A DNA stretch of 64,000 nucleotides from an uncultured Poribacteria bacterium. Its GTDB lineage: Bacteria; Poribacteria; WGA-4E; WGA-3G. Below, piece by piece: positions 50,231 to 53,957 of this stretch. The stretch is from the NCBI GenBank assembly GCA_951813565.1, contig OX638351.1:3296001-3360000 (forward strand). Direction: 5' to 3'. The translations under genes and the position numbers were made by a program. Below the pieces are notes generated by a model. That model did not search any database and was not told the DNA's origin. It saw nothing but the letters and a program-made list of their open reading frames with translations. Numbering within the stretch: the stretch's first letter is position 1; each line of letters starts with the position of its first letter.

Positions 50231-51646
50231 ATGAAACAAATTTTTCAAAAAACATCCATCCTTTTACTGCTTTTCACATTTATTACAGCAAACGCCAACG
50301 CAGCGCACAACTGGACAGAACAGATTGCCAGTTTTAAACCGATGGTAGTGAATGTCGAAACTGCTTCTGAGGTTGTCTTCGAAACGGAATCAAAAGGCAC
50401 AAGCTTCGCTACCGGTTTCGTAGTTGATGCAGAACGTGGGATTATCGCCACGAACCGACATGTTACAGGCAGCAGTCCTGCCTATGTTAAAATCAACTTT
50501 CATGATGGTAGCTTTACAGAAGCAAATATTCTTTACTATGACCCAACGCACGACTTCGGATTTTATAAGATTGATCCTGCTGAAGTTGATTTTGAACTGC
50601 AAGCCGTTGAACTTGGTGAATGGGATAAACTCGCGCTCGGCGATGAACTACTGCTGATTGGCAACAACGAAAAAGAGGAATATTCTATCAAATTTGGTAC
50701 GATTGCGAACCTCAATGTCAACAAAGGTGATAGACATTCAAGTTACATCCATACCACGTTCGACAGAACAGGCGGGTCAAGTGGTAGTCCTGTATGGAAC
50801 ACCGCGGGCGAGGTTATTGCTATCCATGCACGCGGAACAGACACCTCCAGTTTTGAATTACCCATTGATTACCTTATTGATGCGCTGGAATTAATTCAGA
50901 ACGAGATGCCTATTCAACGTGGCGAAATCGGTGTTGATCTTGAACTTATCTCCATTGGAGAAGCCATAAAACATTTTAATTTTCCAGAGGTTTTACGCAA
51001 AGAGATTGGTCCTTCCAAAGCTGGCACACCGAAAGTTATTCAGGTAGAATCTATGGTGCCGCGGACAACAGGTGAAACCATCCTCCGAGCATCCGATATT
51101 ATCTATCGCATTAACGATGAACTTATCCGAGATGATTTATACACCTTTGATGCTATTCTGAATCAGAACGTCGGTAAAGAAGTCACTTTGGACATCTACC
51201 GTAATGGAGAAAACCTCAGTCTTCAGGTGCCCGTAGAGAATTTAGAGAAAAAGAAAGTTCAGAGATTCGTTCGATTCGGTGGTGCTGTTTTTCACGACAT
51301 AACGCCGCAGCTGCGTCGGTTGCTCTACTTGGAAGCTAACGGTGTCTATATGCCCCATGCCGCTGCGGGTAGTAGTTTTTCACGTGTCGGTGTACAAGAG
51401 CGGAACGGTAATTCTAAGGTGGTTATTCTTGATGTAAATGGAAAGCAGATTCGGAATCTGGACGATTTCATTGAGGCATGCAAAACCATTACCGATGGAC
51501 AACACACTTATGTTGTTGTCCGAGATTTCAATCTGTTTGACAGCTCCCCAACCCCGAAAAGTTTAACGGTCAACCTTAAATTCGGTCCATTGCAACAATT
51601 TAAATGGGATTCTGAGAAGTTAGATTGGGAAGAAGTAGTTGAGTAA
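50231..51646 (+). CDS. Secreted HtrA-type serine protease with PDZ domains (Nma111/Deg7-like)
   Basis: TNRHV, HDFGF, GGSSGSPV catalytic triad; signal peptide; PDZ-like C-terminal half. Confidence 0.88.
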   Translation: MKQIFQKTSILLLLFTFITANANAAHNWTEQIASFKPMVVNVETASEVVFETESKGTSFATGFVVDAERGIIATNRHVTGSSPAYVKINFHDGSFTEANILYYDPTHDFGFYKIDPAEVDFELQAVELGEWDKLALGDELLLIGNNEKEEYSIKFGTIANLNVNKGDRHSSYIHTTFDRTGGSSGSPVWNTAGEVIAIHARGTDTSSFELPIDYLIDALELIQNEMPIQRGEIGVDLELISIGEAIKHFNFPEVLRKEIGPSKAGTPKVIQVESMVPRTTGETILRASDIIYRINDELIRDDLYTFDAILNQNVGKEVTLDIYRNGENLSLQVPVENLEKKKVQRFVRFGGAVFHDITPQLRRLLYLEANGVYMPHAAAGSSFSRVGVQERNGNSKVVILDVNGKQIRNLDDFIEACKTITDGQHTYVVVRDFNLFDSSPTPKSLTVNLKFGPLQQFKWDSEKLDWEEVVE

Positions 51647-51679
51647 TACCAAATTAACGGGATTTATCGCATTTTCCGG

Positions 51680-52180
51680 ACGGTAGGTGCGGTTTCCTAA
51701 ACGCTCCATAACTGTCAATTTAAGAAAAAAAGCGTAGTCGCGCAATTCATTGCCAAATCAACGCCAAGCGCACTTGGGCGAATACGCCAAATCAACGGTC
51801 CGAATCATGGCGAATGCCGGACGGGGAATGCCAAAGGGCATTCATACCCGGTGAATGACTAAAGACGAATGCGCTTTTGGCATTCGCCATGATTCATACC
51901 GTTGATTTCTTGATTTGGCGCATTCGTCTTTAGGCACTCCCCGTGTGGTATTCGCCATGACTTGTCGCCTCGGACATTCTGTAGGAGCGAGCTCCAGCTC
52001 GCGACCGGGAGGTCGCTCCTACAGAAGAAAATCGGGGTTGAAAACCCGCCAAATGCCAAAAAGCGCATTTGGCGTTGATTTGGCAGCATGCCAAACGCGC
52101 ATGCTGCGTTGATTCGCTCCCACAAGAGGGTATATCCTTAAATTGACGCATAAGGCGCGTTTTCCTAACTGCTCCATAAA
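51680..52180. repeat. Composite cluster of short palindromic repeats
   Basis: Modules shared with MITE B (GTAGTCGCGCAATTCATTGCCAAATCAAC and the reverse complement of about 49800-49895) and GTAGGAGCG...CGCTCCTAC. Confidence 0.7.
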
Positions 52181-52563
52181 TATGAATCAAGTTAATGTGG
52201 TATAAGAAAACGCGCTAAAATAAAAGTAAACGAACCTTTTATTTTTAGCTATGTCTAATTGAAAATGAGGGCAATTGATTTTCGCCCAGATTTAGGTCAC
52301 CGCTTCCTTCAAGAGGAATTCAAGGTCATCCGATATTGAATGCCTTTTAAGAGTTAGATTCTTCTTTCTCATTTTAGTAAAATTCAGTATACTCTTACCA
52401 TTGATTGCGAGCGTGGTCAAGAGTTTCTTCACTTACAGAATCCCAATGGGTAGATTCTATTATCCGATGCTGACCCTGCGCGTTGTGGACTCGGATTCCG
52501 TCTTGATCCAGGCGATGGCTCGGGTTACGCGTTTCTTATTCATCATTTTTTGAATAAAAAACT

Positions 52564-52591
52564 TTGACATCACCAAATAATATTGTATAAT
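52564..52591 (+). promoter_or_regulatory. Consensus sigma-70 promoter
   Basis: TTGACA-16 nt-TATAAT. Confidence 0.6.
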
Positions 52592-52715
52592 GTATACAAT
52601 TTGCTGGATCAGTAAAGATTGGTATGGTAGAATGGGTGCAGTTTATTCAAGCTTATGTAACTTAACGCGAAACTCACGTAAAAGTGAGATTCATTTTTAT
52701 AGGAGGTTGAACGGC

Positions 52716-53411
52716 ATGAAAATTATATTGGTATTAGTAGGATTTGTGTTGATGATAGCCTATTCTGTTATCGGCACGAGCGACATGGCACAGGCGGAGG
52801 AAGTCTTGGGAGTAGGAACGGATTCGCTGCTCGGAGGAGACCTAACCGACCCAGAAGACGATGGTAATCCTGAAGCAGATGACGGTTACGACGCCATTTT
52901 CACTGCCAACGATGAACCTGGATTCGCTGGCGGGGAATTTGCGTTTAACGTCTTTGATAACACCCTTGGCCCCGGCAATGCCAAATGGTGCTGAGGACGT
53001 GCAGGCGGCATTCCGGAGGAAGGCCTACACATTACAGCTGAGTTTGAGGAGCCGTACGCATTGACACACTTCACCGTATCTTCAGCGAACGATGTTCCTG
53101 CGAGGGACCCTACAGTGTGGGAGGTTCAGGGGTCGAACGACGGCGAAGATTTTACGACTATCTATGCTCACGACGGGGACAGTTTTTGGGATCAGCGACT
53201 GCAAGTCGTCCTTTTTGAGGCAGGGGTAGATTACGACGTTCAAAAAATCGGATATCGGTTTTTTCGGCATGTTACTTTTGACACCGTAGCGAACCCGGCT
53301 GGGGCGTACTTTCAAATTGGCGAAATTGAGTACTTCGGCGATGATAGTTATCCCGTAGACCCTAAAGCCAAGGTCACAACCACATGGGGAAGCATCAAAA
53401 ACATCCGATAA
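52716..53411 (+). CDS. Secreted discoidin/F5-8-type-C-like protein with in-frame TGA (candidate selenoprotein, 231 aa, C92-U93)
   Basis: ORFs 52590-52994 and 53061-53411 are in the same frame, separated by one TGA; AGGAGG RBS; signal peptide; SANDVPARDP..WEVQGSNDG; C-terminal KVTTTWGSIK. Confidence 0.75.
52999..53030 (+). promoter_or_regulatory. Putative bacterial SECIS hairpin
   Basis: GTG-C-AGGC-GGCA-TTCC-[GGA]-GGAA-G-GCCT-A-CAC; G-starting loop 21 nt after the UGA. Confidence 0.6.
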
Positions 53412-53433
53412 ACACAAATATCGGACATTTTCT

Positions 53434-53476
53434 AAATCGGCTTGAATCCAGTAATAACTTGGTTTGAGCCGATTTT
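53434..53476 (+). terminator. Terminator-like hairpin
   Basis: AAATCGGCTTGAATCCA...TGGTTTGAGCCGATTTT. Confidence 0.6.
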
Positions 53477-53573
53477 CATATCTGCTTGAAACCGTATGGA
53501 CTATACTGGTGAGGACCTTTTTGATTTTGAACCGCGAAAATCTTCATGCTCATATTGATTATGAGTTTATAAC

Positions 53574-53957
53574 ATGGAATTCCTCAATGACCATCGTGCT
53601 TGGAAGCAGAATGATACTAATCCTCCGTTTGGTGCGGTAAAAATCGGCACTTGGTACTGGATGAAGGCTGAAATATCAGACGATGGTTTTACGGGCAAAA
53701 TCTGGGAAGATGGCGAAGCAGAACCGAGAGATTGGCTCCTTGAAAGCGCACTTGGTTTTGGTGGTCTTAGACCGAAAAGTGGTCAAGTGGGTCTAAATGG
53801 AGGATCAAGCAGTGATCCGCCTGGGCTTACGGTTGTATCATTTGATAATTGGACGATCTGCGAAACAGCTGATGAGTGCACACCGGATGAGATTCTTGCT
53901 GTTCAAGCAGCTGGCAAACTTCCAACGGTTTGGGGAGTACTCAAAGCGCACTATTAA
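53574..53957 (+). pseudogene. Probable 3' fragment of a secreted beta-sandwich protein
   Basis: No signal peptide or clear RBS; GTWYWMKAEI...GQVGL...FDNW; C-terminal AVQAAGKLPTVWGVLK. Confidence 0.55.

Follow-up and report, generated by a model that had tools for sequence, protein, structure and literature searches.

We analysed a 64,000-nucleotide stretch of DNA (the window; contig OX638351.1 of assembly GCA_951813565.1, C1:3296001-3360000) from an uncultured Poribacteria bacterium whose genome is one 5.43-Mb contig, focusing on a gene at 52716-53411 of the forward strand. The locus forms a single frame of 231 codons, from the ATG at 52716 to the TAA at 53409-53411, and its sole interruption is a TGA at 52992-52994, codon 93, in the context ...GPGNAKW-C-TGA-GRAGGIPEEG.... 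An open reading frame (ORF) list made with translation table 11 splits the frame into 52590..52994 and 53061..53411. A preliminary description had joined these halves and proposed a secreted selenoprotein with a vicinal Cys-selenocysteine (Cys-Sec, CU) pair. Its observation is confirmed, the two halves lying in the same frame with no other lesion, and its interpretation is supported by the comparisons below; the consensus promoter, strong ribosome-binding site (RBS) and terminator that it reported were likewise found (Table 1). The results indicated, with a probability of about 0.92, that the gene is intact and genuinely Sec-decoding, its UGA being decoded and not terminating, because 25 diverged copies carry TGA at this very codon, the part downstream is under purifying selection, a hairpin resembling a selenocysteine insertion sequence (SECIS) follows, and the organism has the Sec machinery. 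The 231-residue product is probably exported, judging by the signal peptide read from its translation.

Table 1. Features of the predicted selenoprotein gene (window positions).
Feature	Coordinates	Strand	Details and basis
Sigma-70-type promoter, TTGACA-16 nt-TATAAT	52564..52591	+	12/12 consensus positions; consensus match alone
RBS, AGGAGG	52701..52706	+	9 nt upstream of ATG; read from sequence
Predicted selenoprotein gene, 231 codons + TAA, one Sec-UGA	52716..53411	+	Frame, comparison of copies, and ratio of nonsynonymous to synonymous substitution rates (dN/dS)
Putative signal peptide, residues 1-27	52716..52796	+	MK + hydrophobic core + AQA|EE; read from translation, conserved in homologs
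CBM32/discoidin-like beta-sandwich, residues ~28-210, including acidic N-terminal stretch LGGDLTDPEDDG	52797..53345	+	AlphaFold2 (AF2) model, fold search
Cys92 codon TGC, vicinal partner of Sec	52989..52991	+	Invariant in 84/84 copies and in alignment A2
Sec93 codon TGA	52992..52994	+	TGA in 25 full-length copies, 22 genomes; TGC/TGT in 59 others
SECIS-like stem-loop	52999..53030	+	Core 53007-53025, GGA triloop 53015-53017, outer GUG/CAC extension
C-terminal tag PVDP-KAK-VTTTWGSIK-NIR	53352..53408	+	Common to 55 ORFs of the genome
Terminator-like hairpin + T-run, overlapping the stop codon	53404..53435	+	Pattern match only

A protein search returned 290 relatives of about 231 residues, which, where named, are discoidin-domain or "PEP-CTERM" proteins of Candidatus Poribacteria. 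W91-C92-C93-G94 was invariant in 38/38 aligned homologs (38 of the 120 listed matches, aligned with the window protein). Because standard gene calls cannot hold a UGA form, the DNA was searched directly. Matches were found in 99 of 112 genomes of the family, many of those in the genus of the window being flagged with one TGA; this family-wide search gave 48 further matches beyond those listed. We read by script every full-length copy in 40 genomes of the genus and the 24 best of a sister genus (g6), excluding from every count the partial copy L065 and the partial or frameshifted L066, L067, L068 and L069. The results showed 84 full-length copies in 56 genomes, 26 of them with one in-frame TGA, and in 25 of these the TGA stood at codon 93 (KWC-TGA-G). 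These 25 Sec copies, from 22/40 genomes of the genus, were 67-93% identical to the window protein, and each ran on to the usual stop codon, free of any further lesion. Codon 93 of the remaining 59 copies was TGC (57) or TGT (2), always within WCCG. The homologs therefore have Cys at this site (38/38 aligned, 59/59 non-Sec copies), not Trp, Arg or Gly, and the TGA is conserved across genomes, not unique to one strain.

Among the copies examined, the Sec form was seen only in one genus of the family; the matches listed for the sister genus included none with TGA and one with TAG. The Sec copies fell into two subtypes, one with ...GxGGGIPxEG and 226-231 residues (A) and one with ...GPxxLPAxGI and 225-227 residues (B). 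Eighteen of the 22 Sec-bearing genomes also held a Cys copy, four had the Sec form only, and ten other genomes had the Cys form only; the Cys paralog of the window's own genome lies at C1:3653108-3653803. The Cys-form paralogs and orthologs share with the window protein their length (225-232 residues), signal peptide, fold and C-terminal tag, at 67-93% identity, but differ in having TGC/TGT at codon 93 and a weaker hairpin. In a gene tree built with the Sec codon masked, the Sec copies were scattered over at least five places among the Cys copies. The presence of both forms in 18 genomes suggests that they are probably used differently.

Tandem arrays of two or three Sec/Cys copies occur at L044 (G043:C1:2340500-2344700), L064 (G027:C6:334152-337864) and L048 (G032:C3:1663575-1666640). 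The Sec copy of G032 groups in the tree as sister to the Cys copy beside it in the array, a pattern that points to gene conversion or to a recent change between Sec and Cys. The 26th TGA copy, L046 (G033:C3:623242-623934, reverse strand), is a Cys form (KWCCG) with its TGA at the codon of the invariant Trp135. This TGA looks like a genuine lesion or a base-call error, and the copy may have switched from Sec to Cys recently and since been broken (it still has a strong SECIS-like hairpin of -8.1 kcal/mol), or it may be the product of such an error.

The UGA form leaves a mark in public databases. Among 120 listed clusters of short relatives, 62 end in ...K[W/F]C, 57 of these being exactly 92 residues long, and about 30 are C-terminal fragments from an internal start codon; the few that are named carry the label 'hypothetical protein'. 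This would be a recurrent annotation error in which at least 62 public sequence clusters are cut at the UGA.

We compared selection on the two sides of codon 93 by the Nei-Gojobori method (NG86). For the Sec copies, dN/dS was 0.25 past the UGA (300 pairs) and 0.33 before it; the Cys copies gave 0.24 and 0.30, respectively. By this comparison, purifying selection on the 138 codons past the UGA is the same as that seen in the Cys paralogs. When all 25,383 in-frame TGA sites of the genome were ranked by coding potential on both sides, the window site ranked 31 (counting from 0). The downstream dN/dS and this rank therefore exclude a pseudogene or an assembly error for practical purposes.

Immediately past the UGA lies the stem-loop of the preliminary description, with its G-starting loop 21 nt downstream. 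Its core is GGC-A-UUCC / GGA / GGAA-G-GCC, a 4+3 bp stem closed by a GGA triloop that begins 21 nt past the UGA (20 nt spacing), with a folding energy of -8.1 to -8.6 kcal/mol. The bacterial SECIS (bSECIS) model, as given in the Fig. 2 legend of PMC13188914, has a loop of 3-9 nt, a stem of 4-16 bp, a G in the first two loop positions, a UGA-loop spacing of 16-37 nt and a minimum free energy (MFE) of -7.5 kcal/mol or lower, and the window hairpin lies within all of these published constraints. The UUCC/GG(A/G)A core was present in 25/25 Sec copies and the triloop was GG(A/C) in 24, with AGA in L063. Stems of subtype A had 4 + 3 bp flanking an A·G mismatch (U·G in L048), and those of subtype B had six or seven unbroken pairs, with the loop 18 nt past the UGA.

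We then folded a fixed 24-nt segment in every copy. The mean MFE was -9.0 kcal/mol in the Sec copies (n=25, range -12.0 to -6.8) and -3.2 kcal/mol in the Cys copies (n=59, range -8.1 to -1.5), and values of -7.5 or lower were reached by 21/25 and 3/59 copies (L032, L046 and L092), respectively. The Mann-Whitney p of 1.5e-12 for this difference is not a true probability, since the sequences are relatives. The gap came from synonymous choices (GAG vs GAA/GAT/AAA; GGC vs GGT) together with E->A (GCG), the encoded amino acids being nearly alike. Five neighbouring Sec/Cys contrasts in the tree were also compared, and the Sec copy had the stronger hairpin in 5/5. The paired cells of the 25 Sec segments amounted to 84.8%, against 81.0% in shuffles (0/500 reaching it).

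Not all results on the hairpin speak for the decoding of the UGA. A 76-nt fold of 52985-53060 was no stabler than its shuffles (z = +0.99), a comparison that is uninformative for a 19-nt hairpin; the window hairpin taken alone is not beyond chance, and its significance comes from the comparative data. It overlaps the conserved coding stretch GGIPEEG, three Cys copies fold at -7.5 kcal/mol or below, four of the 25 Sec copies miss this value on the 24-nt segment, and the Sec-vs-Cys comparisons involve relatives and hence are not independent. Formal covariation was weak: four of eight pairs never vary, two pairs show one double change each, and the covariation score of 0.100 exceeded that of shuffles (0.087; 19/500 reaching it) only modestly. 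RNAalifold, applied to the 25 Sec segments, retained only the invariant 4-bp stem at -1.66 kcal/mol. Given the weak RNAalifold result and the modest pair counts, we do not claim covariation as proof. The conservation of the hairpin envisaged in the preliminary description thus held, with stabilisation specifically in TGA copies, but the covariation did not come out clearly. A Rfam scan of 51500-53700 gave chance-level matches only, none of them on the hairpin.

Profile searches of the genome detected selA (525 bits) and selB (344 bits), exceeding the curated cut-offs, and selD (372 bits), also above its cut-off and itself a selenoprotein gene with one in-frame TGA. A tRNA-Sec with anticodon TCA, likewise scoring above its cut-off, adjoins selB and is the sole TCA-anticodon tRNA among 49. 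The organism is therefore equipped to decode Sec, all four components being present. For an internal control, 14 further candidates for TGA read-through were picked from the genome-wide in-frame TGA ranking. Pfam domains were found in 12/14: AhpC/TSA in six, HMA (GMT-U-xx-C) in three, thioredoxin-like in two and GRDB-like in one. The TGA of the control genes lay inside or at the end of the best-matched Pfam stretch, which for L098 is a second, partial match. We folded the hairpins of 12 controls, selD and two genes of unknown family; most loops began 15-25 nt past the UGA, several at +22, with a GGA triloop at +22/+24 in three and AGG, GGU, GUC or GUA in others. The window hairpin (GGA at +21, -8.6 kcal/mol) fell mid-range among the controls. 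Several control proteins had signal-peptide or lipoprotein-type N-termini; exported selenoproteins are therefore normal in this organism. With at least 14 genes seen, the selenoproteome of this uncultivated sponge-symbiont Poribacteria would be unexpectedly rich.

Examples of control-gene loci are C1:5149535-5150635, 5151170-5152039, 4466788-4467432, 4296720-4297736, 2064374-2065447, 4462021-4463007, 359944-361539, 1110236-1111264, 4948339-4948965 and 3553890-3554627. One HMA control protein also contains a WD40 propeller and a planctomycete cytochrome domain in fusion, and one thioredoxin-like control has a dockerin.

Two explanations dispense with Sec at codon 93. The UGA might be read by a near-cognate Cys or Trp tRNA, with the hairpin as a general stimulator of read-through, and the Cys found at this site in the paralogs would agree with that. 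We consider this very improbable, because the only TCA-anticodon tRNA is tRNA-Sec and the full Sec machinery is present, the hairpin matches the bSECIS model and the genome's own selenoprotein genes in loop, spacing and energy, and a one-base change to TGC would supply Cys, as it does in 57 copies. Even less probable is a TGC->TGA nonsense mutation or sequencing error that cuts the product at residue 92. Such a change takes a single substitution, public gene calls treat the codon as a stop, and the relative L046 shows a lesion-like TGA elsewhere; against it stand the recurrence of the same TGA in 25 copies from 22 independent assemblies, diverged to 67-93% identity with no second lesion, the downstream dN/dS of 0.25 and the co-conserved hairpin.

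To place the gene among known selenoproteins, we compared it with published families. A 2026 review table of 119 prokaryotic selenoprotein families and subfamilies contains none with a discoidin, carbohydrate-binding module (CBM) or lectin fold. The words 'discoidin', 'carbohydrate' and 'lectin' were absent from PMC13188914, PMC12013277 and PMC13326102 (the review, deep-Sep and BSepDB papers), the search covering the articles and not their supplementary lists, including BSepDB Table S2. A full-text literature search, in the accessible portions of its sources, gave no relevant bacterial discoidin selenoprotein, and Poribacteria together with selenoprotein matched only work on NiFe hydrogenase. 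NCBIfam had no family at E <= 1 for the window protein, its neighbour or a second CU protein of the genome. Neither export nor a Cys-Sec dipeptide is new in itself, since other selenoprotein families show the one or the other; set apart by the review table and NCBIfam, the family of the window gene would nevertheless be a new selenoprotein family, in line with the unrecognised type suggested in the preliminary description.

The review table lists the CU motif for SaoL, HgcA, SaoC, SaoB, MbdU, KCU-star and a CopZ-like form. Sec directly follows Cys in SaoL (MerB-like), HgcA, SaoC, SaoB, MbdU, KCU-star and CopZ-like form 2 as it does in the window protein, but these families have unrelated folds and contexts, being cytoplasmic or membrane proteins of organometallic or metal biochemistry, and none of their NCBIfam models matched the window protein at E <= 1. 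According to the table and to the abstract of bioRxiv 10.1101/2022.07.06.499078, database entries for CU-family genes usually stop short at the UGA.

The peroxiredoxin-like and thiol:disulfide selenoproteins of the same genome (AhpC/TSA, UxxC) resemble the window protein in their signal or lipoprotein N-termini, their Sec-UGA and their GGA/AGG loops about 22 nt past the UGA, but the AhpC/TSA proteins combine a thioredoxin fold with UxxC, against a lectin-type fold with CU in the window protein. The great majority of bacterial selenoproteins are oxidoreductases with a thioredoxin fold or a metal centre. If true, a secreted selenoprotein with a lectin fold would extend the kinds of chemistry in which selenium takes part. 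Mammalian thioredoxin reductase has a C-terminal Gly-Cys-Sec-Gly redox centre. The window protein shares its vicinal Cys-Sec followed by Gly (W-C-U-G), and an eight-membered selenenylsulfide ring is possible in principle; however, the pair of the window protein is not C-terminal but sits within a beta-sandwich loop, and the exported protein that carries it lacks a flavin/NADPH domain.

The discoidin-like fold proposed in the preliminary description was borne out by structure prediction and fold search. With Pfam PF00754 (F5/8 type C), the window protein scored 27.5 bits, just under the curated cut-off of 28.2; many close homologs hold a precomputed PF00754 label, and multi-domain relatives score up to 118 bits. 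An initial AF2 model, built on 39 close sequences, had low quality near residues 67-94, which include the CU site, and was replaced by a model from a diverse 46-row alignment (A2). The latter had a mean predicted local distance difference test (pLDDT) of 87.7 and a predicted template modelling score (pTM) of 0.79, with residues 30-210 above 90. A Foldseek search with the first model returned the galactose-binding-domain-like fold at E = 1e-6 to 1e-5. In a fold search (VIA-align), matches included 7nsn_B, the CBM of a GH92 mannosidase (Z 16.5 over 147 residues, root-mean-square deviation 2.2 A), several CBM32 modules (Z 12.8-14.1; 12.9 for 2j1a), F-type lectins (3cqo, Z 13.8; 1k12, Z 12.1) and eukaryotic discoidin domains (about 12-13.5). 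A hidden Markov model (HMM) match to 7nsn had E = 1.6e-12. The mature protein is thus predicted to be a CBM32/discoidin beta-sandwich with Cys92-Sec93 inside a family-wide KWCC motif.

The module is widespread, with 1,377 representative proteins at E <= 0.001, and many of the relatives that bear it are multi-domain surface proteins with TSP3, PA14, LamG, CHRD, cadherin, PKD, RTX or dockerin domains. Cys-Cys was found at the motif in 159/168 domain instances (from the 149 best representatives), mostly as KWCC, and A2 has no more than ten invariant columns, C92 and C93 being two of them. KWCC is the signature of this large and uncharacterised group of bacterial surface modules, and the present finding offers a lead, open to test, on what the conserved vicinal Cys-Cys does.

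To locate the pair within the fold, we ran a profile search against solved structures, and residues 85-150 aligned with the CBM32 of C. perfringens GH84C (2j1a) at E = 0.5. With the numbering offset implied by the fold search, K90/W91/C92/U93/G94/R95 fall on F656/W657/H658/S659/K660/W661. According to PMC12926856, F656, H658 and W661 are galactose-pocket residues of the 2j1a CBM32. From this weak alignment, the Cys-Sec pair appears to fall in the canonical CBM32 ligand loop; that its placement in the pocket derives from an E = 0.5 HMM alignment and fold similarity counts against the functional side of our reading. The F5/8 type C and CBM32 structures (2J1A of CpGH84C, 7NSN) share the beta-sandwich with the window protein, and the motif after the conserved Trp aligns, weakly, with the galactose-pocket loop, but in none of the solved CBM32 structures compared does this loop contain Sec or two adjacent Cys; in 2j1a, His-Ser takes their place.

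In the mechanism that we propose, SelB-GTP-Sec-tRNA(Sec), tethered by the GGA-loop hairpin, would insert Sec at the UGA by the standard and well-supported bacterial mechanism, and the full-length selenoprotein would then be exported via its signal peptide. Cys92-Sec93 could act as a redox-active vicinal centre (selenenylsulfide <-> selenol/thiol) at a CBM32-type ligand pocket, so that the module, displayed on the cells of the sponge-symbiont bacterium, would bind in a redox-gated manner or by covalent capture, and the Cys-Cys paralog, retained in most of the same genomes, could be a less reactive version. That the pair lies in the ligand-pocket loop and works as a redox-active vicinal centre is a tentative proposal, to which we give somewhat less than even odds. 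Slightly more speculative is the idea of a first 'seleno-lectin', that is, a displayed CBM32/discoidin selenoprotein whose pocket Cys-Sec would do chemistry of its own, for instance capturing a ligand of the host matrix covalently or undergoing reversible selenenylsulfide exchange. Sec/Cys pairs among homologs usually mark reactive redox cysteines, and a 2007 study by Fomenko and colleagues is said to have found that such pairs mark catalytic redox cysteines, not structural ones. If this rule applies here, it would mark KWCC as a reactive centre and not a structural disulfide.

The same selenoprotein could instead use its pair in other ways. The Cys-Sec might be a thiophilic metal or metalloid site (Cu, Zn, Hg, As etc.) on the extracellular beta-sandwich and not a redox centre. 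C92 and U93 are the sole Cys/Sec residues in the mature window protein, most CU-motif families of the 2026 review table have to do with metals or organometals (CopZ-like, MerB-like SaoL, HgcA, the metal-binding MbdU), and the same genome encodes the three HMA selenoproteins with GMT-U-xx-C; however, two adjacent residues make a poor chelate, the invariant columns hold no extra conserved His/Cys ligand, the fold and the partner domains (TSP3, PA14, LamG, cadherin, PKD, dockerin) indicate glycan or matrix binding, and no metal-handling genes are adjacent, so we regard a metal site as unlikely. We judge it similarly improbable that the pair is structural, with a strained eight-membered S-S/S-Se ring shaping the loop or a flat sugar platform and Sec being near-neutral or stabilising. 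F-type fucose lectins set a vicinal disulfide against the sugar ring, and such lectins are fold neighbours of the window protein, a likeness at the level of the fold only. The proteins with CC at the motif are mostly large adhesin-like proteins without Sec, and Sec <-> Cys switches occur several times in the tree, both in keeping with a structural pair. The retention of a costly UGA/SECIS with a tuned hairpin in 22 species nevertheless argues for an advantage of selenium, the co-occurrence of the Cys paralog in 18/22 Sec-bearing genomes suggests different roles, and the redox rule for Sec/Cys pairs also speaks against a structural role.

A second Cys-Sec dipeptide was found in the genome in the paralogs L096 (C1:1717410-1718963, reverse strand) and L105 (C1:2853089-2854669, forward strand), proteins of 517 and 526 residues with an in-frame TGA in DESC-U-xxGK and GGUC/AGGU loops 24-25 nt past the UGA. 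No Pfam or NCBIfam family was found for them. Among 120 listed relatives, 27 stop at ..SC, i.e. at the same TGA, whereas in six full-length relatives that were examined the position is occupied by Gly or Thr, not Cys. L096/L105 are possibly another unlisted selenoprotein family, less certain than the window gene.

The window gene stands alone, with its own predicted promoter and terminator. It is flanked by genes for an HtrA-like protease, a tagged protein of 127 residues and a protein of 281 residues, with TolC/HlyD/ABC export genes farther downstream. The three flanking genes have no counterparts within 1.5 kb of the three closest Sec orthologs, and nothing about function can be read from the gene context. 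A gap of about 900 bases (51650-52550) that separates the HtrA-like gene from the promoter contains no long ORF, and the Rfam hairpin matches in this gap (51788-51914) were all at chance level.

The C-terminal tag of the window protein had no Pfam or NCBIfam match and was disordered, with low pLDDT, in the AF2 model. PF07589 (PEP-CTERM) gave no match at E <= 1, and the tail PVDPKAKVTTTWGSIKNIR has no hydrophobic helix. Among the 13,720 ORFs of at least 80 residues in the genome, 55 carry the tag, with the approximate consensus [A/P]-V-[E/D]-P-x2-3-K-L-[T/A]-T-T-W-G-x-[I/L]-K-x2-4. The tag thus resembles a signal for sorting or anchoring that is specific to the lineage, not classical PEP-CTERM. 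The tagged ORFs are mostly of 210-300 residues and often in tandem; besides the window gene, with its tag at 53352-53408, examples are found at 53574-53957 of the window and at C1:102965-103750, C1:1316735-1319265 and C1:3930430-3932601.

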